This document shows, one piece after another, positions 1 to 59,584 of a stretch of DNA of 59,584 nt. The stretch is from Macrostomum lignano (lineage: Eukaryota), in contig NIVC01001417.1 in the NCBI GenBank assembly GCA_002269645.1, positions 1 through 59,584 of the forward strand. The letters are read 5' to 3'. Position 1 is the stretch's first letter. Each line of letters opens with the position of its first letter. Below the pieces are notes generated by a model that did no database searches, was not told the DNA's origin, and worked only from the letters and a program-made list of their open reading frames with translations. Position numbers and translations under genes: made by a program.

Positions 1-709
1 TTCCCCTTTTAGCGCAACACGTGAATTGTCATGATACTATTTTGGATCAAAAACTTGTCTATAATACAAGCGATCTGAAGCGGTACCGGAGCCATTCTCC
101 CACGGAAGAGGAGCGCTCCGAAGAGGAAGCCTTAGGAGGACTTCCTGATCTACCAAGTCAATCGAGACTCGGTCGAGTTGTTGGCGGTAAGCCTTATATT
201 GCGCCCGTTGTGTTAGAGACGTCTCGCTCAAGTCTATTGAGACTTGAGTCTAATTGAGTCTGTTGAGAACTCTTGAGTCTGTTTAGACTCCATTGGTTGC
301 AGTCTCCAGAAGGACTGCCCCTGATAGATCTTAGAGGACTATCAGTGGTTTCCGGAGCTATACCTAGAGTGCATAGAGGCACTGCTAGAAGAAGGAGGCT
401 TAATTTAGACGGCAGTTTGGCGCAGGGTACCCATTGTTGCTACGAGGCGCTCTGATTGGTCCTGACGCGAAGATACCGGCCGGAAGAACTTATCGGAAGT
501 ACAAGAGGAACCAGGACCAGAGCAACTGAAGAATCAAGGCGCCTGATCTACGAGATCTACTGACAAGTTCCTAGCGAGAACTACTCAAGAAATTCAAATC
601 CGGATTAAAGGTAATTGAATACCTTCGTTTGACTTACTGGTTGCCTAGCTGTTGAGCTAGAAGTGATTGTCCTTGATTATCGAAAAGTCGGGTAATAAGG
701 AACACATCA
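1..709 (+). repeat. 5' LTR (partial; about 153 bp lie left of the window)
   Basis: Base 1 aligns to 9725 of the 3' LTR; the shared sequence ends at ...GGTAATAAGGAACACATCA (709), followed by the PBS. Confidence 0.95.
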
Positions 710-1218: not shown

Positions 1219-2421
1219 GTGCGAAATCAGCAAGCGAACAGAACAAGTTCATTTGAGGACAACCAGTGGCAGCAAGCCACACCGCATCCGAGGCCAGCGA
1301 ATAACAAATCGACACCACAAGGCAATTCGTTACAGTCGAGGTTTATTCCGAGGCAAACACCACACTGGACGATCGCGTTACAAATCGATCCAGATCTTGA
1401 AACTACCGTTCTACCTCTATCAACAACATGGCGCGGCGCAAATCCAACGGTACACAGAGACATCAAAGAAACGGTCGGTACTTTCTCGATGGAGAAAGAT
1501 TTTAACACATTTGTCGACCATTTTGACCTGGTATGTAGGGAATACAACCTACAAAATCCAGAGAAGGCACAGCTGCTGCCACCTCTTCTCCAAGGTACTG
1601 CGCGAGAAATTTACGGCAAGCTGGATGCGGCAACACAGCAAAATTATCCAGCACTAATCATTCAACTGCGCGCGCATTTCAACCGTTGCGGCACAAACAG
1701 ATCAGTGCTGCTGCACAAGTTGCATAAAGAAGGATGCAAGCAACAGAATCCTTCCTCGCCTTTGTGGACGATAATCCGCCAGATAATTAAGGCACTGCAT
1801 CAGCCACCGCTGCAAGCTGCGGACAACCACCACTGGGAGCGGCAGAATTGGCCGCCAGAGAAAGACAACGATTGATGGATCGCGAACAAAACCTCATCCT
1901 GCACGTAATAAACAACGCACAGCGTCACTTCGGGATAGACTTTTGCTTTTGACGTGAAAATATCGAAACCGAAGAAGACCTTTTGCGGTGCGGAATGCAG
2001 TGGGAAGCCAGTGCCCATTAATGACGACAGGCAACAATGAAGTGCAGAAACTGACGCAGCAATTAAACAAGTTAATGCAGCACCAGACAGCTGCTATCGC
2101 CGAACAAAAAAGACGAAATGAACAAGCCTCAGCCAGATGTTACTACTGCGGACAAGAAGGACATTATCAGATTAATTGTCCTCATTGGTCAACAAGATAC
2201 GACAAGCCGCGACAGATATTCAACAATCAGAAGCCGCAGAAACCATGGCAGCAATATCAAAATCGCCAACAACAAGGCATAAGACGCTTCGGAAATGATA
2301 GACGCTTCGGAAATAATGACCGCTCCGGAAATGATGGCCGCTTCGGAAACGAAGGCCGCTTCAGAATAATGGCTACAGGCCACGCAACGTCAGATACACA
2401 CAAAGACAGCCGACGCAAGCA
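1219..2421 (+). CDS. gag: Gag (capsid plus CCHC nucleocapsid), broken by several 1-nt indels; true start not resolved
   Basis: Gypsy CA-like segment FSMEKDFNTFVDHFDLVCREYNLQNPEKAQLLPPLLQGTAREIYGKL; zinc knuckle CYYCGQEGHYQINC at 2138-2179; RFGND repeats after it. Base 1219 is a GTG from the ORF track, not an ATG. Confidence 0.85.
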
Positions 2422-3283
2422 ATGCCACGATACGCGAATGCCATCACGTACACACCGGAAAATGAACAGCAAGAACAGCAAGTGTTCACAATTGACGACT
2501 TGGAAATGGACTTCACAGTCCCGGAACTTGACATCAGCTTGATCGAAAAGAAGACGACGCACGAGGACAACACTGACAACACAGAAGAGACGAATGAAAC
2601 CGAAATGATCAAATTAAAAGAGACCACCGGAGACAGCAGAGAAAACAGGAAGAAAGTAAATCACAAGACAAGGGAGGAGGCGGAGAGCGACATCGGCAAC
2701 GAAGAAAAGATGAAACCGGCGAAGAAAACAACTATGAATCGACAACAGTGGATGACGACAAAACGAGCATGAAAGACAAAGAAATGAAAGAAGAAGAAGA
2801 ATGTAGAAGTTACGGCAACGACCACGACTGCGAGGTGCGTGATGACACGAACGACTACCAAGCCGAAAGAGGAATGCAGGAAGAACGAGAGCGGAGAATC
2901 TAAGTTCCGACAGCGATCAAGGCTACGAAATACAATGGAAAGATGAAGAAATGGAAAAAGAACAGGTGAAAGAAAAGCCGAGTTCCGACAGCGACGAATG
3001 CTACGAGATCCGATACAAACGAAATGGTGAAGCCTATATTCAAACGGTCGACTACAAGACAGAGAAAAGATACCAAACGCAATGGAGTGAAACAACGGAA
3101 ACATCGGAAGAAGCCGCAGACGAAGATAATGAAATAACCAAAAAGCAAAGCGAATCAGAAGCCTTCCGCCTGGATCAGCCAATGGAACAACCGAAAGAAT
3201 ATGATGCGGACATGGAAGATAACGAATGGCGATCGCAGCCAATGCCAGCAAGGACAACGGCAAAATCCAAGAAGTGGAAAAAC
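2422..3283 (+). CDS. Acidic low-complexity spacer between Gag NC and the Env signal sequence (frameshifted in assembly)
   Basis: E/D/T/K-rich reading frames chain across 2422-2772, about 2745-2900 and 2890-3283; duplicated motif SSDSDQGYEIQW / SSDSDECYEIRY. Confidence 0.65.
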
Positions 3284-5349
3284 TGGCTATTCTGGATCAT
3301 CGTGATACTACTGATAGCAGTAGTCGCCAAAGCAACGGCAACGGAAAAGCCAATGATTTGTCCAACGGATGCGCATATCCAACCGATGATCTACAAGATA
3401 CCAACCGACATCAAATGCAGTTACTTCAAGACAAACCAGACAAAACCAAAGAAGATTACACTCGATCTCTACAAGGCTAACATCAAGAAGCATCGACAAC
3501 ACGGGATAGTATGCTTCAGAGACAAGCACCTGGTGGAAAAAGTTTGGCGCGGACAATGGAACCGGATCCGATTTAAACAACATGAGCTACATGTGTCGCA
3601 CGCGGAATGCCTACAATGGAATCAAACACTATTTTCAAAGGATGGTGAACTGGAACCAGATGAGAAGGTCGGCAACGCACAGCTGTTCAGAACAAAGAAT
3701 TCAGCCAACGGTCGATATATTCACTTCTTCGGAAAATGGAAAGAATATATGGCACGCAACAGCTACTTGATCAGAAATATTCCATTCTACTACAATCCGT
3801 ACGAGAAAATGGAATCGTTACAGCTGCAACTAAGCGAATGTCGATACAGTGAAGGATGGTGTCCAACGCCGATTCTACGGAAGGAAGAACTACACAGTCT
3901 ACCACTGAGTCCAACATATCATCAAGACTATCGATGGCAGATTGAGCACAGAGCACAATCACACTATGAGGAACCGTACAAATCACGACAATATTTCTTC
4001 GCATGTGAAGTTGAGCCGGAAATTGACTGCAAGCTTCAAAAGTATCACACAGTGAAGGAGGACTACTGTCAAATACGTTTTTGGCAAAGTCAGGAGACTT
4101 GGCACTGACGTTTCAAAAGAAACCAGTCGAGCAAAAACTGAAATGCAAGGATACAGACAAGACACTATTCATCTCGGACAAGAATACCAGTCTACGTAAA
4201 GGATGAAGACAAACAAACCTTCTGGCAATCATCAATGGAACGTATCAGCAACAAACAGAGAGACAACGACGCGACATCGAACGTCCAAACTGGTGTCAAA
4301 CCGCTGTGTCAGCAAAGATAACGGCTTTGGATCACAATCTGCATAACCAGTTAAACCACTTGCATCGAACACTGGTTCAGCTAACTTGCAAAATGCACGC
4401 AATCAACTTAAATTATGCAGACAACTACTATGTCAACCCTACGATGACATTTCGCAAATCACGGAATGAGAACGTTTGGCATTCCAATATACGAGCATCT
4501 GTTGATATACAAGTGCACGCCGATACAGCACTTTAACATCTTGCCGTCGAACACGTCAACAACTTGCTACGACAAGCCAAGATTGAAGCGTTCTACGAAG
4601 GAAAAGATTCAGGATTCTTGGACACGGTACACAACATCATCGTTGGCACCGCAATACCGAGACCTTGCACCACGGCAGTAAACTACTATCAACTGGACAA
4701 TGCACTACACGTCATCAAAACAACTGGAACGACAGCAAACGTCACAGAACCGGAAGTAATCGTCGACGAAAACTACGACATGGAGGATTTGAAAATCCGA
4801 TTCAACAGAACGAAGTATACGCCATTCGCCGATATCCAACTTGACGAGATAACACCAGGATGGACGATCAACGACTTCTTGCAAGCGTTCATCACCCAAC
4901 GCAAGATGATTCACCAGCTGTTCACAAGAAAGGACAAAGGAACCGGGACAGGAAGATTTCCCGTCCTTGTTTCAATGGACAGCGCCATCAAATCATTTTG
5001 GACAAATAGCTTCTGGGAGCTGCTCAATGGAAGAGGCAGTCTCTATCAAGGATTCATCTTCTACGGTGCTTGCATTGTGTGGATTGTCACGGCAATCTTC
5101 ATCATTTCATCGATCGTACGGTGCTTCAGTCAAACTTGTCCAAGAGCTAAGAAGACAGTGAATGCCATAATGCAAAGAACGACAACGGAAAGCGACAACA
5201 GTTTAGAACTAACAGAAACTGCACATTGTGAGGTTCAAGGGCAACCGACACTAGCAACGCGGCTATATCCATCGATTCCGACAACACCAACGGCACCAAG
5301 GATACAACCACCCAACTATCAAGCAGAACAGCACGAGCCAAAATGGCCG
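3284..5349 (+). CDS. env: Envelope glycoprotein, class III fusogen (herpesvirus gB-like), with TM and cytoplasmic tail; several 1-nt frameshifts
   Basis: Hydrophobic signal WLFWIIVILLIAVVAKATA (3284-3340); Cys-containing ectodomain; RQRR furin site (4261-4272); gB-like helix/NPT, C-T-P, CYxxP and PC motifs; TM FIFYGACIVWIVTAIFIISSIV (5053-5118). Confidence 0.85.
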
Positions 5350-5690
5350 GAAAACTACGTCTGTACGCTACACGCCGAGATTGGCAAAGCAATGGCTCAG
5401 GTCATTGTCAACAACTTGCCATGTCGAGCACTACTGGATTCAGGCAGCTCGATCACAGTCATCTCGCAACAATTATGCAACAAGCTACGACTCGCGGTAC
5501 GACCAGCAGCAATCGCAGTTGCAGGAGCAGGAGGACATTCGCTCAACATCCTAGGAAAAGCAGATATACTTGAAAATTGCTAATAAACAGCTGACGGTCC
5601 CGACGTACATCATCGACAGACTACCAAACCAAGACGTCATCGTTGGAATCGACACGTTCAAACAGCTTCACTACCATTGACCTTCGACTT
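5350..5690 (+). CDS. pro: Aspartic protease, in frame with the Env C-terminus
   Basis: ALLDSGSSITVIS (DSG at 5437-5445), flap VAGAGGHSL, and DVIVGID in the adjacent frame after a 1-nt shift near 5570. Confidence 0.92.
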
Positions 5691-7650
5691 CAACAAGCAA
5701 ACGTTTAGGATCGACGCGGTGGAGCAACCGCTGATCAATCAGATTCGAGTACTACCGAAAGTAACTCTGCAGCAAGATGTCATCATCCAGCCTGAAAGCG
5801 CATGCTGGGTCAGAGCGAAAACGACCAGCGCGGCAGATGAAGCAATGATATTTGATCCACACAGGAGAGTCACGGCAAAACATCAAATCATGATGCCTAC
5901 GGCACTAGTGCTGGTTGCAAAGGATAAGCAACTGCCAGTACAAATCTTCAACCCGAACACAGAAACGGTTCATCTACGACAAGGAATGTGCATCGGTCAT
6001 CTCAACACCCAAGCATCGGTTATGCTGATTGAACAAGCGACTCCACGACTAACAGAGGAAGAATTTCAAAAGAAGATCAATTTGGATGACAGCCCGATTA
6101 CGGAACAGCAAAAGAGGAAAGTTCGACAGCTGTTGTGGAAGTACAACGAAGCCTTCTGCCATCATGATTACGACATCGGACGAGCCAAGGACATCAAACA
6201 GGAAATCAAACTTCTGCCGCACACGGAACCAATTCAGTGCAAGCCGTACCCGATCGCCAAGCATCTGCAACAACACTTTGACGAAATCATCGATAAAATG
6301 CTAAAGCACGGCATCATCAGCAAAGCTATTTCGGCTTACTCCTCACCGTGCCTACTGGTACAGAAGAAGGAGACAAACGAAAGACGACTCGTATGCGACT
6401 TCAGACTGTTGAACAAGTACATACCGACGGATCAGCAAAGCCTACCGAAGATCTCCGAACTACTAGCAAAGCTCAACACGGCAAAATTGTTCACGGTGTT
6501 CGACCTACGTCATGGATTTTGGCAAATTGAAATCGAGAAAGAGTCACGACAGTACACGGCTTTCAAAACCTACAATGGACAAGTATACGAGTACAATCGA
6601 TCGCCGATGGGACTTAGCAACAGCCCAGCAACGATGAGTCGACTAACAGCATACATGCTAGCAGGATGCACGAACCTGCTGCACTATGTCGACGACATTT
6701 TAGCCTACGGAGAGGATTTCGAGCGACTCTACGAAGCTACGGAGAAGGCCCTAGCGCTCATTCAACGCCAAGGTCTGAAGCTACAACCAACTAAATGCAA
6801 ATTCTTCCGAGACAACGTGCGTTACCTGGGACATCAGGTGACAGCCAAAGGAATCTCACCGGACCCAGACAACGTGGAAAAGGTGAAGAAGTTTCCTACG
6901 CCAACCAGTATAACGAAGGTCCAATCATTCCTTGGACTTGCGCAATACTTCAGGAAGTTCTTACCTAACTTCGCAAAGACAGCAAAGCCACTGTACGACC
7001 TGCTCAAGTTCGACAAATGGAAGCAAGACAACTGGACACAGAGACAACAGGAAAGTTTCGACGAAATCAAACGACAGCTGACATCAGACGCACTGCTACA
7101 GCATCCGGACTTCGACAAGCCCTTCATCATCGAGACAGACGCCTCAGGAACGGGACTCGGAGCAGTCCTACTACAGGAAACCGAGGACAAGAAGGAACGA
7201 CCTATTGCTTACGTCAGTCGAGCACTCAAACCAAATGAGACAAAGTGGTCAGCTACGGAACGAGAGCTACTAGGAGTCTTGTTCGCCCTGCGACAGTTTC
7301 ATTACTACATCTATGGTTCTCCAATACAGACGATAGTACGCACGGATCATGCACCATTGACCTACGTCGTAACTACAAAAGGACAGACCAACAACCGACT
7401 CATCAGGATGACACTCAAGATCCAGGATTACAACTACAAACTCGTCTACAAACCAGGAATTACCAACAAAGCCGCGGACGCCCTGTCAAGAGCCTATGAA
7501 GTCAACGCCATTCATCCAATCCCTAACATCAAGGAGTTGGTGGATGAAACCGAGCGCGACAACTTCTACCAAGCGGTTAAAGACGACGACAAGAACATCA
7601 AACTCAGCCCATGGAACGAAAATTCCTACGCAAGCAACGACAACACCTAA
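5677..7650 (+). CDS. pol: Pol: pre-RT domain, reverse transcriptase and RNase H
   Basis: SSPCLLVQKK, RLVCDFRLLN, DLRHGFWQI, PMGLSNSPA, HYVDDIL (6685-6696), YLGH; RNase H ETDASGTGLGAVL, ERELLGV, TDHAPL, ADALSR. Confidence 0.97.
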   Translation: MTFDFNKQTFRIDAVEQPLINQIRVLPKVTLQQDVIIQPESACWVRAKTTSAADEAMIFDPHRRVTAKHQIMMPTALVLVAKDKQLPVQIFNPNTETVHLRQGMCIGHLNTQASVMLIEQATPRLTEEEFQKKINLDDSPITEQQKRKVRQLLWKYNEAFCHHDYDIGRAKDIKQEIKLLPHTEPIQCKPYPIAKHLQQHFDEIIDKMLKHGIISKAISAYSSPCLLVQKKETNERRLVCDFRLLNKYIPTDQQSLPKISELLAKLNTAKLFTVFDLRHGFWQIEIEKESRQYTAFKTYNGQVYEYNRSPMGLSNSPATMSRLTAYMLAGCTNLLHYVDDILAYGEDFERLYEATEKALALIQRQGLKLQPTKCKFFRDNVRYLGHQVTAKGISPDPDNVEKVKKFPTPTSITKVQSFLGLAQYFRKFLPNFAKTAKPLYDLLKFDKWKQDNWTQRQQESFDEIKRQLTSDALLQHPDFDKPFIIETDASGTGLGAVLLQETEDKKERPIAYVSRALKPNETKWSATERELLGVLFALRQFHYYIYGSPIQTIVRTDHAPLTYVVTTKGQTNNRLIRMTLKIQDYNYKLVYKPGITNKAADALSRAYEVNAIHPIPNIKELVDETERDNFYQAVKDDDKNIKLSPWNENSYASNDNT

Positions 7651-8896
7651 CAATCAATAAGTCACGGCTCTACTGGATGAGCGACAATAAACCCAAGATC
7701 TACATACCATATTCGTTTCGGCAAGCAATTCTCAACGAGCTACACGACAACCCACTCGCTGGACACCTGTCGGCACAAAGACCATCGCGAGAGTGGAACA
7801 ATACTACTTTTGGCCAACTATGTACGGCGACATCAAGCAGTATTGCAACAACTGCCATTCATGTGCTGCATCAAAGACAGGACGACGACAGAAACCGCAG
7901 CTACAGTCCATTCCGAAGTCGACTACAATGGACTGTCTAAGCATCGACATCACCGGACCGCTACCACCGAGCTGTCTCCAGGGCATCGCCTACACCTACA
8001 TTCTAACCGCCTTGGATATCTTCTCGAAGTTTGCTATCGCCATACCGATACCGGACATCACAGCTCAGACAGTGGCAATGAGTTTCTTCAACGAAATCAT
8101 TTGCAAGTACGGCACGCCGAAGAACCTCACATCGGACAACGGATCGCAGTTTACATCGCAACTGTTTCAGCAAGTCGTAAGGATTCTCAACATTACGCAG
8201 ATCTACACATCGACCTACAATCCGAAGGCAAACATGGTTGAACGGTTTCACCGCAACCTGCACGAGATGATTACACATTTCGCGCACCAACAGCCGGAAG
8301 ACTGGATCATCTACCTGCAATCTGTAACAATGGCCTACAACAGCGCTATTCATCGATCAACGGACAATACGCCATTCTTCCTAATGTTTGGACGAGACTT
8401 CCAACCGCCGAATCTGCTCGCACAGCAATTGCTACCATCGCAGTACGTGGAAGTACCGACTTCCATTCAGAAATTCGTCACGCAACTACACCTCGCATGG
8501 AAGATCGCCAAGCACAACATTGACAACCAGGTGGCTCTGACCACCGGCAACGACGCGAGATCGACAACCCTGACGGCCGGCGACATCGTCTACCTACACT
8601 ACCCGCCACAGCAGACGCATAAACATGCACAGAAGTACAAAGGACCCTATCGAGTGGTCCAACTAACGTCACCAACAACGGCACGCCTGGCTAATGTACA
8701 AGATCCACATCAGCACCAGTTCTACGTACACATTCATCGACTAAAGAAGATCAACACTGACACAGCGACGTTTCTACCGACATTAGACAACGCTGATCGC
8801 ACGCGTTCAACGAACCGCCACATCGCGACGAAGCACGAGGAGACTCAAACGACAGATGTGAGCCAGCCACATGGCTACAACCTACGACCACGCTAG
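7611..8896 (+). CDS. int: Integrase (HHCC zinc domain, DDE core, GPY/F motif); one 1-nt frameshift near 7780
   Basis: HDNPLAGH...CNNCHSC; IDITGPL, SDNGSQF, VERFHRNL; KYKGPYRVV; C-terminal HGYNLRPR then TAG. Confidence 0.95.
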
Positions 8897-9016
8897 AGTT
8901 TAGAGAACAACCCCGTGTAGTGACCGGGATAAAGAATAGCACTACAGCTTCGCAAGCTTGTCGTAAAAGGCGACTAATCCGAGCGACACAAAGACAGCGA
9001 CAAATTGACGACAATT

Positions 9017-9391
9017 ATGGGCAACGCACTGTCAAAACAGGCGCCCCAGCCTCAGCAGCTATATGACTGCCCGATATGTTTAACTGATGACTTGGCTGTC
9101 AAGCCACCGACTATTTGCATCAATGGACATAAAGTTTGCGGACAATGTTTAAGTGATTCACACTATATTCAGCCCTGGCAGAATTGTCCCCTCTGTAGAG
9201 ATAGTTTGCGACAATGTGCCTATTGTTATTCTTGGCGCACGTTTCAATATTGTAACCATCAACATTTTATTTGCATGCACTGTTTGAAGCAAACCGCTAG
9301 TAGGGGCGTTATAGGATGCCCCTTATGTAATAGTATGCCGCGAGACTGCACGTTTCGAAAGTGGTGTCGGATCAAACCTGATGCCACTTGA
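9017..9391 (+). CDS. Accessory ORF: 124-aa tandem RING-finger protein with N-myristoylation motif
   Basis: ATG at 9017 gives MGNALSKQ (MGxxxS). Two C3HC4-like arrays: CPIC..CINGHKVCGQC..CPLC and CAYC..CNHQHFICMHC..CPLC. Uninterrupted ORF inside the element. Confidence 0.85.
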   Translation: MGNALSKQAPQPQQLYDCPICLTDDLAVKPPTICINGHKVCGQCLSDSHYIQPWQNCPLCRDSLRQCAYCYSWRTFQYCNHQHFICMHCLKQTASRGVIGCPLCNSMPRDCTFRKWCRIKPDAT

Positions 9392-9556: not shown

Positions 9557-9568
9557 AAAAAAGGGAGA
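9557..9568 (+). promoter_or_regulatory. Polypurine tract AAAAAAGGGAGA
   Basis: Purine run ending 3 nt before the TG that starts the 3' LTR at 9572. Confidence 0.85.
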
Positions 9569-9571
9569 TTT

Positions 9572-10435
9572 TGTAGAGTGTTCTACCTCCCGTTAAAAAA
9601 GGAAAAAAGAAGATAATCGTATAATACTACTATAAGTAAGTAAGTACACGCATGTGCGCCTAAGCTTTGAATGAATCACGCTACCAGAAAAAGATGTTAC
9701 CAGAATAATACGCCATGAGCCATTTTCCCCTTTTAGCGCAACACGTGAATTGTCATGATACTATTTTGGATCAAAAACTTGTCTATAAATACAAGCGATC
9801 TGAAGCGGTACCGGAGCCATTCTCCCCACGGAAGAGGAGCGCTCCGAAGAGGAAGCCTTAGGAGGACTTCCTGATCTACCAAGTCAATCGAGACTCGGTC
9901 GAGTTGTTGCGGTAAGCCTTCCTTATTTGCGCCCGTTGTGTTAGAGACGTCTCGCTCAAGTCTATTGAGACTTGAGTCTAATTGAGTCTGTTGAGACTCT
10001 TGAGTCTGTTTAGACTCCATTGGTTGCAGTCTCCAGAAGGACTGCCCCTGATAGATCTTAGAGGACTATCAGTGGTTTCCGGAGCTATACCTAGAGTGCA
10101 TAGAGGCACTGCTAGAAGAAGGAGGCTTAATTTAGACCGCAGTTTGGCGCAGGGTACCCATTGTTGCTACGAGGCCTCTGATTGGTCCTGACGGAAGATA
10201 CCGGCCGGAAGAACTTATCGGAAGTACAAGAGGAACCAGGACCAGAGCAACTGAAGAATCAAGGCGCCTGATCTACGAGATCTACTGACAAGTTCCTAGC
10301 GAGAACTACTCAAGAAATTCAAATCCGGATTAAAGGTAATTGAATACCTTCGTTTGACTTACTGGGTTGCCTAGCTGTTGAGCTAGAAGTGAGTGTTCTT
10401 TGATTACCAAAAGGCGGGTAATAAGGAACACATCA
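9572..10435 (+). repeat. 3' LTR, 864 bp, TG...CA
   Basis: Starts TGTAGAGTGTTC and ends GAACACATCA; TATAAATA at 9784-9791; repeats 1-709. Confidence 0.93.
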
Positions 10436-16839: not shown

Positions 16840-19800
16840 ATCTCTCACCCTACCTCACCGAATCACGCTACCGCTCTCACCCTACCTCACTGCGTCACTA
16901 CTCTACCGCTCTCACCCTACCTCACCGAATCACGCTACCGCTCTCACCCTACCTCACCAAATTACGCTACCGCTCTTACCCTACCTCACCGAATCACGCT
17001 ACCGCTCTCACCCTACCTCAACAAATTACGCTACCGCTCTTACCCTACCTCACCGAATCACGCTACCGCTCTCACCCTACCTCACCAAATTACGCTACCG
17101 CTCTTACCCTACCTCACCGAATCACGCTACCGCTCTTACCCTACCTCACCGAATCACGCTACCGCTCTCACCCTACCTCACTGCGTCACTCTACCGCTCT
17201 CACCCTACCTCACTGCGTCACGCCATCGCTCTCACCCTACCTCACCGAATCACGCTATCGCTCTCACCCTACCTCACTGCGTCACTACTCTACCGCTCTC
17301 ACCCTACCTCACCGAATCACGCTACCGCTCTCACCCTACCTCACCAAATTACGCTACCGCTCTTACCCTACCTCACCAAATCGCGCTACCGCTCTCACCC
17401 TACCTCACCAAATTACGCTACCGCTCTTACCCTACCTCACCGAATCACGCTACCGCTCTCACCCTACCTCACCGAATCACGCTACCGCTCTCACCCTACC
17501 TCACTGCGTCACTCTACCGCTCTCACCCTACCTCACTGCGTCACGCCACCGCTCTCACCCTACCTCACCGAATCACGCTATCGCTCTCACCCTACCTCAC
17601 CAAATTACGCTACCGCTCTTACCCTACCTCACCGAATCACGCTACCGCTCTCACCCTACCTCACCGAATCACGCTACCGCTCTCACCCTACCTCACTGCG
17701 TCACTACTCTACCGCTCTCACCCTACCTCACCGAATCACGCTACCGCTCTCACCCTACCTCACCAAATTACGCTACCGCTCTTACCCTACCTCACCGAAT
17801 CACGCTACCGCTCTCACCCTACCTCACCAAATTACGCTACCGCTCTTACCCTACCTCACCGAATCACGCTACCGCTCTTACCCTACCTCACCGAATCACG
17901 CTACCGCTCTCACCCTACCTCACTGCGTCACTCTATCGCTCTCACCCTACCTCACCGAATCACGCTACCGCTCTTACCCTACCTCACCTAATCACGCTAC
18001 CGCTCTCACCCTACCTCACCGAATCACGCTACCGCTCTTACCCTACCTCACCGAATCACGCTACCGCTCTCACCCTACCTCACCAAATCACGCTACCGCT
18101 CTTACCCTACCTCACCGAATCACGCTACCGCTCTCACCCTACCTCACCGAATCACGCCACCGCTCTCACCCTACCTCACCGAATCACGCTACCGCTCTCA
18201 CCCTACCTCACCGAATCACGCTACCGCTCTCACCCTACCTCACTGCGTCACTCTACCACTCTCACCCTACCTCACTGCGTCACGCCATCGCTCTCACCCT
18301 ACCTCACCGAATCACGCTATCGCTCTCACCCTACCTCACTGCGTCACTACTCTACCGCTCTCACCCTACCTCACCGAATCACGCTACCGCTCTCACCCTA
18401 CCTCACCAAATTACGCTACCGCTCTTACCCTACCTCACCAAATCGCGCTACCGCTCTCACCCTACCTCACCAAATTACGCTACCGCTCTCACCCTACCTC
18501 ACCGAATCACGCTACCGCTCTCACCCTACCTCACTGCGTCACTCTACCGCTCTCACCCTACCTCACCGAATCACGCTACCGCTCTTTCCCTACCTCACCG
18601 AATCACGCTACCGCTCTCACCCTACCTCACCAAATCACGCTACCGCTCTTACCCTACCTCACCGAATCACGCAACCGCTGTCACCCTACCTCACCGAATC
18701 ACGCTATCGCTCTCACCCTACCTCACCGAATCACGCTACCGCTCTCACCCTACCTCACCAAATCACGCTACCGCTCTCACTCTACCTCACCGAATCACGC
18801 TACCGCTCTCACCCTACCTCACCGAATCACGCTACCGCTCTCACCTTACCTCACCGAATCACGCTACCGCTCTCACCCTACCTCACCGAATCACGCTACC
18901 GCTCTCACCCTACCTCACCGAATCACGCCACCGCTCTCACCCTACCTCACCGAATCACGCTACCGCTCTTACCCTACCTCACCGAATCACGCTACCGCTC
19001 TCACCCTACCTCACCAAATCACGCTACCGCTCTTACCCTACCTCACCGAATCACGCAACCGCTGTCACCCTACCTCACCGAATCACGCGACCGCTCTCAC
19101 CCTACCTCACCGAATCACGCTACCGCTCTTACCCTACCTCACCTAATCACGCTACCGCTCTCACCCTACCTCACCGAATCACGCTACCGCTCTCACTCTA
19201 CCTCACCGAATCACGCTACCGCTCTCACCCTACCTCACCGAATCACGCTACCGCTCTCACCCTACCTCACCAAATCACGCTACCGCTCTCACTCTACCTC
19301 ACCGAATCACGCTACCGCTCTCACCCTACCTCACCGAATCACGCCACCGCTCTCACCCTACCTCACCGAATCACGCTATCGCTCTCACCCTACCTCACCA
19401 AATCACGCTACCGCTCTCACCCTACCTCATTGCATCACTCTACCACTCTCACCCTACCTCACTGCGTCACTCTACCACTCTCACCCTACCTCACTGCGTC
19501 ACGCCATCGCTCTCACCCTACCTCACCGAATCACGCTATCGCTCTCACCCTACCTCACTGCGTCACTACTCTACCGCTCTCACCCTACCTCACCGAATCA
19601 CGCTACCGCTCTCACCCTACCTCACCAAATTACGCTACCGCTCTTACCCTACCTCACCAAATCGCGCTACCGCTCTCACCCTACCTCACCAAATTACGCT
19701 ACCGCTCTCACCCTACCTCACCGAATCACGCTACCGCTCTCACCCTACCTCACTGCGTCACTCTACCGCTCTCACCCTACCTCACCGAATCACGCTACCG

Positions 19801-20770
19801 CTCTTTCCCTACCTCACCGAATCACGCTACCGCTCTCACCCTACCTCACCAAATCACGCTACCGCTCTTACCCTACCTCACCGAATCACGCAACCGCTGT
19901 CACCCTACCTCACCGAATCACGCTATCGCTCTCACCCTACCTCACCGAATCACGCTACCGCTCTTACCCTACCTCACCTAATCACGCTACCGCTCTCACC
20001 CTACCTCACCAAATCACGCTACCGCTCTCACTCTACCTCACCGAATCACGCTACCGCTCTCACCCTACCTCACCGAATCACGCTACCGCTCTCACCTTAC
20101 CTCACCGAATCACGCTACCGCTCTCACCCTACCTCACCGAATCACGCTACCGCTCTCACCCTACCTCACCGAATCACGCCACCGCTCTCACCCTACCTCA
20201 CCGAATCACGCTACCGCTCTTACCCTACCTCACCGAATCACGCTACCGCTCTCACCCTACCTCACCAAATCACGCTACCGCTCTTACCCTACCTCACCGA
20301 ATCACGCAACCGCTGTCACCCTACCTCACCGAATCACGCGACCGCTCTCACCCTACCTCACCGAATCACGCTACCGCTCTTACCCTACCTCACCTAATCA
20401 CGCTACCGCTCTCACCCTACCTCACCGAATCACGCTACCGCTCTCACTCTACCTCACCGAATCACGCTACCGCTCTCACCCTACCTCACCGAATCACGCT
20501 ACCGCTCTCACCCTACCTCACCAAATCACGCTACCGCTCTCACTCTACCTCACCGAATCACGCTACCGCTCTCACCCTACCTCACCGAATCACGCCACCG
20601 CTCTCACCCTACCTCACCGAATCACGCTATCGCTCTCACCCTACCTCACCAAATCACGCTACCGCTCTCACCCTACCTCATTGCATCACTCTACCACTCT
20701 CACCCTACCTCACTGCGTCACTCTACCACTCTCACCCTACCTCACTGCGTCACTCTACCACTCTCACCCT
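16840..20770. repeat. 32-bp minisatellite (CTCTCACCCTACCTCACCGAATCACGCTACCG)n with higher-order duplication
   Basis: The 32-aa period in translation equals 3 x 32 nt; identical variant blocks at 19430 and 20681. Confidence 0.95.
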
Positions 20771-20891
20771 ACCACTCAAACTATACGTTTCCTATTTCTT
20801 CACTTTACTCCTCATACTCTGCCTAGCTCCGAAATTTTATCCTTCTCATTCTACATCAATCTTTACACAGCATCCGACAGCATCGCCTCAC

Positions 20892-39614: not shown

Positions 39615-41553
39615 CCAGACCAAGGTGTTAGACAATAGGGCTGAATTTACATGGCAATGTACAATGTTTTGGAATAGCTTTGTTTATAGCCTTCTCTGCT
39701 GCTCTGCACCCCCATCAAGAGGCTACATTTAGCCATTGTAATAAATTGCACATTGCAGTAAAAAAATTCAAACCCAAAACATAGTAGGCCTACAAAAGTG
39801 TGCTGGATTCAGGAAAATTTATAAACTATCTTAGCAGAGCAAAGGCCAAAGTCGAAAGCTATGAATACAGCATACAATGCAAGCATGATAAGAAGGAATT
39901 AAATCAAAGGCTATGCTAGATTGATAATATTCTTTCAAGAGGCTCTTCATATTGCTTGTTCTGGTTCTAGAACCAGAACCAATTTGTAAAGTATAACTTT
40001 TTGTCTCCTTAACTAGAGGGATATACTTGCTATAAACTCTTAATTATTGAATGAAAATCGTCAAGAAGAAAATGAAAAATTATGCAAAGTGAGGCTGTTA
40101 AGGCAGTCAAATATTAACAGAGTTAAATAGTTATACTGCTGTTTTTCTTGGAAGATCCGAACCGATTCTGGTTCTGGAATTGGTAATGTGAAGAGGCTGT
40201 GAAGAATGTGAAGACGCACTGCTCTATTAAGCTGTTTACCTCCAAAAATTATTGAAATTCGAATTTCGAACAGATAGCCTAACCACTTGTACACAAATTA
40301 TGCATTAAAAATATACAATTTAGAAAGACTAAATGTAATATTTAAAACTTTAAGAGACATAGGAGGTCCAAAACACTATTATCGATTTCTTAAAGAAAGA
40401 AAAATTAAAGCGCTGCATTGTTTTACTTATTATTTCATTTCACCCTAACTATTTAAACTAAGATTGCGATGTAGTTTCATGAATCAAAAAATTTTAGTGA
40501 ATTCTCAGATTTTTTAATTTCTTAGAAGAGTACACTCAATTTAGCAACATCTGTAAGTCGATGTAACATATTAGCGGAAGTCGAGGTCCCATCTATTGAG
40601 CAATCTCTTAGCACAAAGTAGTATATTGCAATATTTGTTGTATATTTCGGTCCCAGGTCAATTCGGTGACAAGACATTTCGGTGACAACAACTTCGGTGA
40701 CAACTTGGGACGTTTCGGTGACACCAGTGGTCAATTCGGTGACAAGCTTTTTAGACTTGATTTGACTATTTTTCGTTGTTAAATATTAAAATATAGCTGT
40801 CACTATAAACTCTTATTAAAGTATTGATGGTTCGTATGCTATCAATTATCATTTTGTTTGAGTGCGTTTCGAGGCATAATCACTTATAGCGCGCACTTAA
40901 TTTTATCCATACTTTTCATTTTTCAACTCAAATCAACTGTCAACGATCCAATTGATGATTCGATTTTTTGTACTACATCTACTACATGTACATGTATTGT
41001 AGATGTACATGTACATGTACGTCTTAAAAGCCATTGAACGAGTTTAGAAAACAACTGTATACCTATAGCGTAGCTTATGACTGTATATACGAGTATGTTA
41101 TGTGCTAATTCAGGGACTAAGGCAAGGGGCGCCAATAGGGGCGGACCCGCGGATAGAGCTTGATAGAACTTATTGACCCCCCTAATTAAAACCTAAAAAC
41201 TTATTAACCCAAAAACTTATTGAGCACCATTTAAACTAGATTTTTCGCCTCCTACACGCATTTTTGCACCCCTAGCTTAAAATAAATTAGCGCCCCTCAT
41301 ACTCATGTTGGCGCCCAAAACTTGGACCGACGCCCCCCCTTTCGGCCCCCAAATGAAATTCTAGATCCGCTACTGTATGTGCGCCTCACAGAGTATAGGT
41401 TACGAGTGTGGGTGAGTTGGCTTGAAATTATCTTGTAATTAGTTTTGGCGCTTATTGACAACTGTCCTGTGCGTGTACAGTAAACTTATGGTCGCGGCTC
41501 GTGACCATGTCAACATAAACACGTACATGTGTATAAATGTAAAGTCATTTTAG

Positions 41554-42252
41554 TCCCTTAAAGCCATTTTAAGGGAAGTTCAAAGATTCGCTCCCGATTT
41601 CTCACCCGCGAGATTCGTTCTCGACTATGAGCAGCCAGCCTGGAAGGCGGTTCAATGCATCTTTCCGCAGGCTGAAGTGCAGGGCTGCAATTTCCACTGG
41701 ACCCAGGCAGTCTGGCGAAAAGTTCAGAACGTGGGTCTGCAGCAGTCCTATCGTGATGATGATGGCACAGAACGGTTCGTCCGGAAGTTGATGGCACTGC
41801 CGTACCTGCCACGTGACGAGATTAACGAGGTGTTTGAAAGCCTCCGAGCTTCGCAAGCTGCTCAGGTAGACGAAAGGCTGCAGGAACTATGTGAGTACAT
41901 TGGCAGTACATGGTTGGGCGAAGGCAGCAACTGGAAAGCGGATGACATTTGCGTGTTTGGTCAGCCCATCAGGACCAACAACGACCTGGAGGGCTGGCAC
42001 TATCGCCTAAACCGTAAAGCTGGGAGGCGCAACCTCCAGTTCTATCTATTGCTGCAACTGCTCCACGAGGAAGCTATCCTGGTGCCACTCCAGGCTCACC
42101 TGCTGTCCAGAGGGGTACTGCGTCGAGAGCAGTGGCAAGGGTACCACACAGTTCAGTCTCGTTTATTTCGCTACTGGGCGGAATATGAACAAAGTACTCG
42201 AAGCACTCGGCGGCTGCTTAAATCCTGTGGTCGTCTCTTTAATCCGAAGTGA
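41554..42252 (+). pseudogene. MULE transposase C-terminal exon (N-terminal exons absent)
   Basis: Open from a tttag acceptor: ...FVLDYEQPAWKAVQCIFPQAEVQGCNFHWTQA...RTNNDLEGWH; first catalytic D motif not present. Confidence 0.88.
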
Positions 42253-43441
42253 CATGACGACTGTGTTGCACCAAAGACTACATATGTACTAGACATATAC
42301 ACCAGACTGTACATGTACTAGAATCGAAGGCCGGATATTTAGGGAACTATACTACTCGTGTATACCATGTACTCTCGCAGTAGCGCAACCAGAAATTTGT
42401 TGAGGGGGGGGCGAATCATTCGCTTGGTCCCCTTTGATTTTTTCCGGTGTCCCCGAAGGAGGGGCAACCGCCCCCCCCCGGTTGCGCCACTGTGAGTATT
42501 CTGACAGTGATCAGAATAAATGAGTATTCTGATTCGTATACTCATTATATTAAATACTGTACTGTACATGTTGTGTCGACTTGTGTTGACGCCTTTTTTG
42601 GTGCAAATATGTTTACTGCTTAGTTCTCTGTCCTTACTAAAATACACTGCTAAATAACTCAACTATCATTCCGCTCATTATACTATCGATTCATATACTT
42701 GCACTGCACTGTAACTACTGCTTTGAAATAGCTTGATTTAGTAACGACAATAAATTTGTTTACGAAAATCAGACACCAAGAAGAAGCTATAGCTTTTGAC
42801 TATACATCAAAGGGGGGAGGGGGCGGGGGGCGCGGTCGGTCCAAGTTTTGGGCGCCAACATGAGTATGAGGGGCGCTAATTTATTTTAAGCTAGGGGTGC
42901 AAAAATGCGTGTAGGAGGCGAAAAATCTAGTTTAAATGGTGCTCAATAAGTTTTTGGGTTAATAAGTTTTTAGGTTTTAGGGGGGTCAATAAGTTCTATC
43001 AAGCTCTATCCGCGGGTCCGCCCCTATTGGCGCCCCTTGCCTTAGTCCCTGAATTAGCACATAACATACTCGTATATACAGTCATAAGCTACGCTATAGG
43101 TATACAGTTGTTTTCTAAACTCGTTCAATGGCTTTTAAGACGTACATGTACATGTACATCTACAATACATGTACATGTAGTAGATGTAGTACAAAAAATC
43201 GAATCATCAATTGGATCGTTGACAGTTGATTTGAGTTGAAAAATGAAAAGTATGGATAAAATTAAGTGCGCGCTATAAGTGATTATGCCTCGAAACGCAC
43301 TCAAACAAAATGATAATTGATAGCATACGAACCATCAATACTTTAATAAGAGTTTATAGTGACAGCTATATTTTAATATTTAACAACAAAAAATAGTCAA
43401 ATCAAGTCTAAAAAGCTTGTCACCGAATTGACCACTGGTAT

Positions 43442-51341: not shown

Positions 51342-51718
51342 CCCCGGCCACCACGCCCGCCCCTCCAGCCGGCAAAGCGGGCCTAATAACTCGCACCTGG
51401 GAAGACGGCATCTACCTATTAGTACTGCACGCCTACGAGTGCGACACCGCTAGTCTGCCAAACAATTTTCAAGTTCGAGCTCGCGTTGAAATTGTCAACA
51501 GGTTTGGCTATTTGTCCGCTATTGACTGGCCCCTGCTGCCGTTCTTCGGCTCAATGTGCCTGCTGTATCTGCTGTTCGGCCTGCTCTGGCTTGGCCTGTG
51601 CGCCAAGTATTGGCGAGAAATGCTGCGCATCCAGTTTTGTATATCCGGCGTTATCTTTCTGGGCATGCTGGAGAAGGCCCTGTTCTATGCCGAATATCAG
51701 AGTATTAATAGCACTGGG
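51342..51718 (+). CDS. TMEM87: TMEM87 exon 3
   Basis: TWEDGIY...GYLSAIDWPLLPFFGSMC...LRIQFCISGVIFLGMLEKALFYAEYQSINSTG|gtgagt. Confidence 0.92.
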
Positions 51719-51769
51719 GTGAGTTTAGTTTTGTATCAGTTCTCCTTACTCTGACCCGTAATTTATAAT

Positions 51770-52910
51770 ATCCATCGTTGGCACCACTCTGACCCATTGC
51801 TGACCAAAGCTGACCCATCGTTAGCACCACTCTGACCCATTGCTGACCCAAGCTGACCCATCGTTGGCACCACTCTGACCCATTGCTGACCAAAGCTGAC
51901 CCATCGTTGGCACCACTCTGACCCATTGCTAACCAAAGCTGACCCATCATAAGCACCACTCTGACCCATTGCTGACCAAAGCTGACCCATCATAAGCACC
52001 ACTCTAACCCATTGCTGACCCAAGCTGACCCATCATAAGCACCACTCTGACCCATTGCTGACCAAAGCTGACCCATCATAAGCACCACTCTGACCCATTG
52101 CTGACCCAAGCTGACCCATCATAAGCACCACTCTGACCCATTGCTGACCAAAGCTGACCCATCGTTAGCACCACTCTGACCCATTGCTGACCAAAGCTGA
52201 CCCATCATAAGCACCACTCTGACCCATTGCTGACCCAAGCTGACCCATCATAAGCACCACTCTGACCCATTGCTGACCCAAGCTGACCCATCATAAGCAC
52301 CACTCTGACCCATTGCTGACCCAAGCTGACCCATCATAAGCACCACTCTGACCCATTGCTGACCAAAGCTGACCCATCGTTAGCACCACTCTGACCCATT
52401 GCTGACCCAAGCTGACCCATCATAAGCACCACTCTGACCCATTGCTGATCCAAACTGATCCATTATCGCCAACACTCTGACCCATCAGTGACCCAAGCTG
52501 ATCCATTATCGCCAACACTCTGACCCATCAGTGGCCCAAGCTGATCCATTATCGCCAGCACTCTGACCCATCAGTGGCCCAAGCTGATCCATTATCGCCA
52601 ACACTCTGACCCATCAGTGACCCAAGCTGATCCATTGTCGCCAGCACTCTGACCCATCAGTGACCCAAGCTGATCCATTATCGCCAGCACTCTGACCCAT
52701 CAGTGACCCAAGCTGATCCATTATCGCCAACACTCTGACCCATCAGTGGCCCAAGCTGATCCATTATCGCCAGCACTCTGACCCATCAGTGGCCCAAGCT
52801 GATCCATTATCGCCAACACTCTGACCCATCAGTGACCCAAGCTGATCCATTGTCGCCAACACTATGACCCATCAGTGACCCAAGCTGATCCATTATCGCC
52901 AGCACTCTGA
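51770..52910. repeat. 43-bp minisatellite (GCTGACCCATCATAAGCACCACTCTGACCCATTGCTGACCAAA)n, TMEM87 intron 3
   Basis: Visible tandem copies with two variant blocks. Confidence 0.92.
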
Positions 52911-52983
52911 CCCATTATTCATCATGGGTGACCTGTATGCGGCAGTCAATCACGCATAGATCAATCGCTCAAATCTCGCTCAG

Positions 52984-53589
52984 GTCAGCGTACGCGGAGC
53001 CGTCATGCTAGCTGAGCTGGTGTCCTGCGTGAAGCGTTCGGTCGCTCGCATGCTGGTCCTGATAGTCTGCCTGGGCTATGGCATTGTGAAACCCCGGCTA
53101 GGCCAGCTGCAGCACAAGGTGATTGCAATCGGACTCGTTTACTTCATCTTCTCAGCCGTTGAGAGCTCCATCAGAGCCATGCGACCGCGGTTTGATCAGT
53201 CGCGTAACGCCTTCTACGCCACCATCCCCCTGGCCGTGACCGACGCCATCATCTGCTGGTGGATCTTCAGCTCGCTGGTGCAGACAATTCGCAACCTGCG
53301 AGTTCGGCGCAACCTGGTGAAGTTGTCTCTGTACAGGCATTTCACCAATACCTTGGTGTTCTGCGTTGTCTGCTCCGTTGTGTTCATGACCTGGACTGTT
53401 AGCAGGCATAAATTCGCGCTCTGCATTGCCGCCTGGCGAGAGCTTTGGATTGATGACGCATTCTGGCATCTGCTGTTCTCCGTCATACTGTTTGTTATTA
53501 TCATTCTGTGGCGGCCTTCGCAGAATAACCAGCGATACGCGTTCACTCCGCTGCTGGATGCTGGAAATGATAGCGATGAGGATGAGGAG
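52984..53589 (+). CDS. TMEM87: TMEM87 exon 4
   Basis: cag|VSVRGAVMLAELVSCVKRSVARMLVLIVCLGYGIVKPRLG...WRELWIDDAFW...LWRPSQNNQRYAFTPLLD..EEE|gtgagg. Confidence 0.95.
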
Positions 53590-53619
53590 GTGAGGGCGCT
53601 GATGACGGATCTAAAATAA

Positions 53620-58723: not shown

Positions 58724-59584
58724 TCAGCGAACCAGCTGTGTTTCAATGCATCTGCTGTTGCTGCCTCCTGTGCCGCCGCCGCCGCCGCTTCTGCTGCTGC
58801 TACGGTTAGCTTTGGTCAAAGGAAAATGCCAGAACAGCAGGCGAGCGAATAGTTCTAGAAATTCAAACGTACTAATGATTGATACTCCGAGCCAGAGGCC
58901 GAGAATGCCTCCAATGTCCGACGCCAGATTTCGGTCCGGATAGGCCCAGCTCTCGCGCATCACACTGCCCATTGTAGAATGGGTATAGATTGTCAGTTTG
59001 GCGAACGACTCTCTAAAGGCTGGCTCTCGGTGCTCGTCGGACATTCGACGCTGAATCTCCACCAAGGTGGTCAAATCGTCGCCCTGTTCAGCGGCAAGTG
59101 CGATTGTCCGCTCGACGGCTTCGGCCAGGGCCTGGCTGGTCTCGTTGCAGGCGCTCGGCCAACGGTTCTGCGTGAAGCGCATCTCGTAGCGCACGTTTTT
59201 GCAGCGCAGCGGGCAAACGTCCGGGGCTAGGCCAGACGTCTTCTTGTGAATCTCGCTGACTACGGAATCGTGACAGGCCCTCCGGTGCTCGGCGGCTTGG
59301 TTGCGCTCGATTGCCGCCTCGGCCTCGGTGGCCGCCTGCTGGTCGATGCTCTCCATGAGGCTCTCCGGCTAATGCTGTGGCAGAACGGCACGCTCAGATT
59401 AGAATTCAGATTGGCTGGCAGCGGCAGAGCCTCCGAAACGCAGGAACAGTTAGTGCGCAAGTAGGTTTGGTAAGTGTTGACGAGGCAGTCCCTGATAGTG
59501 TACCTGTACTCAGTGATTCGGTTATACCTGTCGACAAACTTCACCGTTTGAAAGTTAGCATCAAGCGAGCAGTTTTTCAGCACG
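58724..59584 (-). CDS. DEG/ENaC (ASIC-like) sodium channel, 3' part; one 1-nt indel near 59365; 5' end outside the window
   Basis: Y...DC......CSC...LP.....C thumb cysteines; CPLRC..VRY; TM2 SDIGGILGLWLGVSIISTFEFLE with GxS selectivity filter. Confidence 0.93.

Follow-up and report, generated by a model that had tools for sequence, protein, structure and literature searches.

A recently inserted Ty3/Gypsy element of Macrostomum lignano with a predicted gB-type envelope encoded in frame between Gag and protease

The gag-env-pol layout is already known from published retrotransposons with long terminal repeats (LTRs). In the planarian element Burro (GYPSM1), Env lies in frame between Gag and the protease (PR); it is presented in PMC6431247 as the first in-frame env between gag and pol, with matches to mononegavirus fusion glycoproteins, and the element has extra ubiquitin-related domains. 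GAG-ENV-POL elements with a gB-type ENV are described from Nematoda, Bryozoa and Platyhelminthes by Chary and Hayashi (eLife 2026, PMC13524379), according to whom the gB ectodomains lie between two transmembrane (TM) segments and the elements are non-monophyletic. The same paper cites the nematode endogenous retroviruses (ERVs) of Sacco et al. 2022 (doi 10.1099/jgv.0.001739), in which env and pol are flipped and whose title tells of an RNA-virus glycoprotein captured by a metavirus. Here we analyse a stretch of 59,584 nt from Macrostomum lignano (contig NIVC01001417.1, assembly GCA_002269645.1, forward strand), called the window below, to which all coordinates refer unless stated. It begins inside an LTR element that is probably a recently active Ty3/Gypsy member of this published GAG-ENV-POL kind, with a gB-type fusogen and a proposed assembly mechanism based on a polyprotein threaded through the membrane.

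The family has probably been catalogued already. Supplementary file 1 of PMC13524379, with about 55 rows for GAG-ENV-POL elements, contains a row, Platyhelminthes_Rhabditophora_Mlig_errantivirus_2, with LTRs of 863-864 nt, a spacing of 9727, a gB-type Env, 16 copies and Macrostomum lignano as host. Matched by table values and not by sequence, the present element very probably belongs to the same family: its LTR is 864 nt long, its spacing about 9724, and the 12-nt primer-binding site (PBS) is the same at a 2-nt offset. Like the GAG-ENV-POL errantiviruses of that paper it has env between gag and pol, a gB-like ectodomain between two hydrophobic segments and near-identical copies. An earlier reading made from the sequence only knew of no published retroelement with this layout; these elements and the in-frame env of PMC6431247 show that it is not new. 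The words "polyprotein", "fused", "in-frame", "single ORF" and "RING" do not occur in the main text of PMC13524379.

Burro resembles this element in having one polyprotein with Env in frame between Gag and PR. However it exceeds 30 kb and has a 4873-aa open reading frame (ORF) with BIR, MATH, ankyrin, BCL2-like and dUTPase-like domains (PMC6431247), whereas the present element measures about 10.6-11.7 kb across its short and long variants and has a 2498-aa ORF without BIR, MATH, ankyrin or BCL2-like Pfam matches, followed by separate 3' RING ORFs. The hookworm Atlas virus (Belpaoviridae), which has identical LTRs, also joins Gag, Pol and Env in a single stop-free polyprotein, of 2828 aa (PMC9094657), but in the order Gag-Pol-Env, with a class II phlebovirus-like Env, a BEL/Pao pol and no enzyme behind the membrane anchor. 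The generalization of the sequence-only reading that env lies 3' of pol and is usually expressed from a spliced RNA thus has exceptions, among them this Gag-Pol-Env polyprotein. In Drosophila-type Errantivirus (gypsy, ZAM), env is of the F type and forms a third ORF after pol, whereas here it is of gB type and precedes PR. Belpaoviridae (BEL/Pao) are characterized by a Peptidase_A17 protease and an env after the integrase, neither of which is found in this element. Saccharomyces Ty3, the best match of Pol among solved structures and similar in its order of reverse transcriptase (RT), RNase H (RH) and integrase (IN), differs in having no env; in Ty3 a programmed frameshift links Gag to Pol. The nematode ERVs come from a host phylum other than that of this element, if the match to Mlig_errantivirus_2 is right, and reportedly have a continuous gag-env-pro-pol ORF with a nyamivirus-like Env.

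In natural copies one frame runs through Gag, an acidic spacer, a first hydrophobic segment (TM1), the Env ectodomain, a second hydrophobic segment (TM2), a tail and PR-RT-RH-IN. A DNA search of the own genome gave 152 candidates, 20 of which were scored, yielding at least 19 other copies. Eighteen of these 19 are full length with 94-99% identity (13 at 99%), and all 18 contain env. A stop-free Gag-Env-PR-RT-RH-IN frame of 2538 codons (2498 aa from the first Met) is present in untouched sequence of 3 of the 19, in agreement with the single polyprotein of about 2500 aa that had been proposed. In two further copies the frame measures 2487 and 2461 codons; another copy, 94% identical, has one of 2370 codons that starts before the zinc knuckle of Gag and runs through the integrase. 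Knuckle, env and pol share a single frame in 6 of the 19 scored copies, while the remaining 13 are broken or partial; in the five copies with a single break, its position differs in each.

The junctions were also compared in short-read contigs from four public runs of four studies (runs only guessed to be RNA), using a natural copy as reference. Gap-free contigs cross from the knuckle to TM1 (three runs) and from TM2 to the protease motif (one run). None of the 12 short-read indels listed is located in the polyprotein ORF, and none of the 22 coding substitutions listed, 18 of them synonymous, creates a stop. These contigs confirm the sequence, not a transcript; overall the element is present in 19 of 24 listed public runs, whose type is guessed or not recorded. 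The stop-free ORF that had been expected from a consensus or from accurate reads exists in natural copies, both junctions are bridged, and stops between gag and env or between env and PR are not common to all copies. None of the 8 joints listed (contigs, runs of four studies) has GT..AG ends. A joint from 4354 to 9236 in the coordinates of copy L009, found in two runs, was considered as a splice and rejected: its ends are AG..AA, about 40 bases match on its env side, and we read it as a rearranged fragment. A programmed -1 frameshift was also rejected, as no in-frame slippery heptamer (X XXY YYZ) was found in the polyprotein frame.

The window copy itself carries 34 frame-changing indels relative to a natural uninterrupted copy, chiefly 1-nt losses, a fragmentation which resembles sequencing error and could be decay. 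Its features are the following.

1-709, + strand: 5' LTR, truncated by the contig start; complete in other copies (864 nt, TG...CA)
712-723, + strand: PBS, 12 nt, 2 nt past the LTR; identical in all 11 copies listed
1428-2460 (end approximate), + strand: Gag, capsid-like region and CCHC knuckle at 2138-2179; zf-CCHC E=4.7e-5; frame broken in the window copy
2461-3262 (start approximate), + strand: acidic spacer (30% D+E over about 267 aa) under weak constraint
3263-3345, + strand: basic patch and TM1 (internal signal anchor or signal peptide), hydropathy 2.41; patch and hydrophobic segment proper at 3263-3328 (+)
3346-5052, + strand: predicted gB-type (class III) fusogen ectodomain, Cys-rich, with furin-like RRRR; Pfam and Foldseek; frame broken in the window copy
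5053-5109, + strand: TM2, Env membrane anchor, hydropathy 2.43
5110-5390 (end approximate), + strand: cytosolic tail/linker with late-domain-like motifs YPSI 5263-5277, PTAP 5287-5298 and PPNY 5308-5319
5391-5760 (limits approximate), + strand: aspartic protease, LLDSG at 5431-5445; Asp_protease_2 E=2.7e-7; frame broken in the window copy
6361-6840, + strand: reverse transcriptase core, YVDD at 6685-6696; RVT_1 E=1.3e-28
7033-7431, + strand: RNase H; RT_RNaseH_2 E=1e-37, RT_RNaseH E=3.6e-35
7704-8896, + strand: integrase with zinc-binding domain, core and GPY-like C-terminus; Integrase_H2C2 and rve; polyprotein stop at 8896
9017-9391, + strand: accessory ORF of 124 aa with Met-Gly start and RING-like zinc fingers; Sina_RING/zf-RING_2 E~5e-4, below cut-offs
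9557-9568, + strand: polypurine tract (PPT), preceding the 3' LTR
9572-10435, + strand: 3' LTR, 864 nt, TG...CA

The window starts within the 5' LTR, bases 1-709 being 97.5% identical to 9725-10435. Two stop-to-stop frames of the window copy agree with the junctions read earlier from the sequence: 2846-4108 (first ATG at 2951, previously given as ORF 2951-4108) unites the acidic spacer, the Env signal segment and the ectodomain, and 4537-5583 (previously ORF 4564-5583) unites the end of the ectodomain, the TM, the tail and the DSG protease. Motif and Pfam order and the uninterrupted copies bear out the placement of env between knuckle and protease. The span formerly assigned to the element, 1219-8896, is correct at its end, where the polyprotein stops, but not at its start: the coding ATG lies near 1428, and the element continues to the RING ORF and the 3' LTR. 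Several contigs start or stop at or within the 5' LTR of this element (window 1-709; copies L003, L005 and L011), and the family thus appears to break the assembly.

By its sequence features, TG...CA LTRs, PBS, PPT, 4-bp target site duplications, PR-RT-RH-IN order and a Pol nearest to Ty3-G, this is a Ty3/Gypsy (Metaviridae) element, as had been recognized from the sequence. Among solved structures the best Pol match is Ty3-G Gag-Pol (E=4.9e-96), all others scoring 3e-48 or weaker. Pfam gives the domain order PR-RT-RH-IN and no match to Peptidase_A17 or RVT_2. No Pfam capsid match was obtained for this Gag; it matches a homolog, P0074 (E=2.8e-8), which carries Retrotrans_gag, so that the link to a capsid is transitive. 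The second residue of Gag is Ala, and the protein is therefore devoid of the N-myristoylation glycine.

Env is, from its modelled fold, a conserved gB-type (class III) fusogen. A sequence search of Env against solved structures returned nothing below E=0.5, so that a fold search was needed, and in Pfam it matches PF24664 (Monjiviricetes_fusion) at E=1.1e-5, below the curated cut-off. An AlphaFold2 model was built from 47 sequences (pLDDT 75.5, pTM 0.47). In a Foldseek comparison with the PDB, herpesvirus gB occupies all top rows listed (best E=3.3e-20). Compared with viral models, the Env model matches nyamivirus-like G (E=8e-25 to 4e-23, best 7.7e-25) as well as entomopox and chuvirus-like glycoproteins. 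A furin-like RRRR is found at residue 948 of the polyprotein.

The same layout is found among distant homologs. An HMMER scan retrieved 71 Env homologs and a word-indexed protein search 1. As judged by motifs, the knuckle precedes env in 28 of the 71 and a protease motif follows it in 23, both being present in one chain in 15 (one from the same family). Pfam was run on 26 (longer) members and places PR-RT-RH-IN after env in 8 and PR-RT in 2 more. The RT of ten polyprotein homologs is 28-38% identical to that of this element. Homolog P0065 is a BEL/Pao protein with env after the integrase. In three other homologs (P0028, P0045 and P0050) env is followed by two protease-like motifs separated by about 190-300 aa; in P0028 and P0050 Pfam recognizes a protease at both, and a tandem protease is possible. 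In P0005, a database protein of 3074 aa, an Env part 97% identical to that of this element is joined to RNase H and glycoside hydrolase pieces of unrelated origin; the protein is probably a chimera predicted across one of the element's copies.

The copies are recent integrase-type insertions. Both ends were obtained for 10 of the 15 copies examined; distinct 4-bp target duplications flank all 10, and their LTRs differ by 0-4 mismatches. One of the other five is cut by a contig end and four have a more distant 3' LTR. These four represent a variant 1.06 kb longer, with identical LTRs in the one checked. The seven bases that follow the 3' LTR are identical in L011 and L013, which may be one insertion assembled twice.

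Ratios of nonsynonymous to synonymous changes (pN/pS), a crude measure taken against five diverged copies, are 0.07-0.11 for Env (five copies) and 0.00-0.09 for pol where measurable, compared with 0.23-0.27 for the tail and 0.34-0.41 for the spacer (three copies differing in the spacer). On this sequence measure Env is under purifying selection and constrained like pol. Divergence is arranged in tracts within env and the tail, in copies whose gag and pol can be near identical. Relative to L009, the mosaic copies L013 and L015-L019 contain tracts with 10-18% divergence, mainly synonymous, over polyprotein residues ~600-1350. The tracts suggest recurrent recombination between subfamilies rather than a separately mobile env.

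Only two hydrophobic windows exceed the threshold used in the 2498 aa of the polyprotein. TM1 is flanked by a net charge of +5 on its N side and -1 on its C side, TM2 by 0 and +3 respectively. Under the established positive-inside rule these charges predict a cytosolic Gag, a luminal ectodomain and a cytosolic Pol, the topology put forward in the sequence-only reading. Of 16 homologs, 11 likewise have the more basic flank of TM1 on its N side. Fifteen of the 16 show a (-3,-1) signal-peptidase pattern, which is permissive and uncontrolled and is not counted as evidence. As Gag lacks Gly2, TM1 is likely to be its membrane anchor.

We infer a membrane-threaded polyprotein with Gag and Pol in the cytosol and Env in the lumen, from which the following mechanism can be proposed. 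An unspliced RNA would be translated into one polyprotein, in which TM1 would act as an internal signal, leaving Gag in the cytosol and sending the ectodomain into the lumen of the endoplasmic reticulum (ER). TM2 would halt the transfer, so that the tail, PR and Pol again lie in the cytosol. Cleavage after TM1 would probably be by host signal peptidase, and at RRRR by furin. Gag would thus be held at the membrane by TM1, replacing a myristoylated matrix domain, and Pol would be carried in on the Env tail. The YPxI, PTAP and PPxY motifs of the tail would recruit the endosomal sorting complexes required for transport (ESCRT), which would drive budding; during maturation capsid (CA), nucleocapsid (NC), RT and IN would be released by the protease of the element. 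The cleavages by signal peptidase, furin and protease, the fixed 1:1:1 stoichiometry of Gag, Env and Pol, the ESCRT-dependent budding and the infection of other cells are all predictions from the genes.

YPSI, PTAP and PPNY are clustered within 20 residues of the tail. They correspond to the late-domain classes of ALIX (YPSI type), TSG101 (PTAP) and Nedd4 (PPNY). All three are retained in 20 of 20 copies, PPNY becoming PPTY in three with diverged tails, and one additional YPAL is located in Gag. For a comparison excluding the own family, env with a downstream protease motif was present in 22 of 70 homologs; 5 were dropped for want of a clear TM2 and 17 tails were scored, 8 of which contain a late-domain motif. 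The 1796 tail residues contain P[TS]AP 3 times, as against 3 occurrences in 25,984 residues elsewhere, and none of 2000 tail shuffles reaches 3. Motifs of the YPx(L/I) type occur 4 times in the homolog tails (12 of 2000 shuffles), one of them at the TM border. A narrow search, without the figures and most supplements of PMC13524379, found no report of late domains in a retrotransposon Env tail, its sole result being an HIV review listing, and the candidate late-domain cluster of the Env inner tail is possibly a new detail.

The 3' region is variable. The window and most copies have a short form with one ORF of 124 aa, while the first RING ORF reaches about 220 aa in five copies. In the 1.06-kb longer variant, RING ORFs of 222 and 210 aa lie between pol and the 3' LTR (L022:118-1489, L036-L039). 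This variant comprises the 3' regions of copies L004, L006, L008 and L009, and of L003 by ORF length; the second ORF measures 210 aa in three of the four regions fetched and is shorter in the fourth. The two RING ORFs are paralogous (25% identity, E=1e-13), and both match RING models below cut-off. One database search gave no sequence homolog of the first at E<=0.001. Its Atlas matches, none above 0.91 and with a recognition that stays under the threshold, are viral RING proteins of a generic kind and serve as a lead only. It may resemble arenavirus Z, a myristoylated RING matrix protein. Among invertebrate LTR elements, the capture of ORFs at the 3' side is common (PMC5408684). No literature report of paired RING accessory ORFs was found, and the main text of PMC13524379 does not contain the word "RING".

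These features can be combined, tentatively, into a budding design unlike that of retroviruses. Gag, lacking a myristoylated matrix, would be anchored by the Env signal segment, Pol would be packaged as the tail of Env, and the ESCRT late domains (YPxI, PTAP and PPxY) would reside in this tail and not in Gag. A ubiquitin-ligase or matrix-like function might come from the two paralogous RING proteins, of which one may carry an N-myristoyl glycine. One chain would then supply a complete enveloped particle, with a class III fusogen working without gH/gL-like partners. We consider this full combination somewhat less likely than not.

Several observations weigh against the proposed element biology. 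The Env model has a pTM of only 0.47 and whole-chain TM-scores of only 0.2-0.35, so that the fold match is one at the level of domains. Within a single 30-nt bin of the tail, 3 copies share a frame change, which is absent among the short-read indels listed. No run is recorded as RNA and all records are contigs, so that transcription and the unspliced state are presumptions. The homolog chains are gene predictions, some perhaps chimeric, as illustrated by the unrelated glycoside hydrolase domain of P0005. Nine of the 17 homolog tails have no late motif, PPxY is not significant (2 occurrences, 190 of 2000 shuffles), and the motif comparison is post hoc, the motifs having been picked after they were seen in this element, among homologs that are mutually related and uncorrected for kinship.

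That env might be a secondary insertion or an assembly chimera, or that gag, env and pol might be separate ORFs, is suggested by the window copy, which by itself is divided into many frames, and by the concentration of inter-copy divergence in and around env. However all 18 other full-length copies contain env, 6 of the scored copies hold knuckle, env and pol in one frame, distant homologs show the same order, and the divergent tracts have their limits inside env and the tail, as expected of recombination between subfamilies, rather than at the env borders. With the uninterrupted copies and the short-read contigs that bridge the junctions, we reject this explanation as extremely improbable. 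It is more plausible, though still rather doubtful, that the frame is continuous and Gag is nevertheless overproduced, by alternative splicing, early polyadenylation, ribosome drop-off or selective degradation of Env-Pol, the products not being 1:1:1 and the full chain being a minority product. Capsids normally require much more Gag than Pol, and contigs lose rare forms, so that the data on joints are compatible with such an excess. Single-ORF LTR elements do produce Gag in excess, copia through a spliced Gag RNA and Tf1 through degradation of Pol. The lack of an in-frame X XXY YYZ heptamer and of GT..AG ends among the 8 joints listed argues in the other direction. An excess of Gag is compatible with the threaded topology and would alter the ratio only.

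The element could also assemble and bud into the ER or other internal membranes and transpose intracellularly, Env serving as a membrane scaffold or for entry to the nucleus-side cytosol and not for infection. On the inferred topology both halves of the polyprotein would be tethered to the membrane from the ER onward, and PMC13524379 calls the entry mechanism of gB-bearing elements unknown. We nevertheless regard this as unlikely: the ectodomain is as constrained as pol and keeps the gB fold, the furin-like site implies passage through the Golgi, and the late-domain motifs are retained in a fast-changing tail.

The remainder of the window contains other repeats and genes. Directly after the element, about 25 kb (10436-36032) consist of diverse short tandem arrays with periods of 4-46 nt, for example a 32-mer repeated 122 times at 16842-20773. 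Between 40648 and 44573, inverted repeats of 463 nt with 100% identity (40723-41185 and 42977-43439) surround a 232-codon ORF (41554-42252) that has no Pfam match at E<=0.001; by its motifs, this region may be a Mutator-type DNA transposon. Exons of a GOST seven-transmembrane gene lie at 51401-53619 on the + strand (PF06814, E=5e-60 and 1e-20), where a tandem array of 43-nt units interrupts them. The 3' part of a gene for an amiloride-sensitive (DEG/ENaC) channel is found at 58724-59368 on the - strand (PF00858, E=6e-19).

This element is a good test case for its kind, being compact, multi-copy and recently inserted, with natural uninterrupted copies. The tail motifs offer a testable handle on the assembly, budding and entry of gB-bearing retrotransposons, a question left open in PMC13524379. 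If late domains truly reside in the Env tail, the assembly of an enveloped retroelement would have been solved differently from that of retroviruses.

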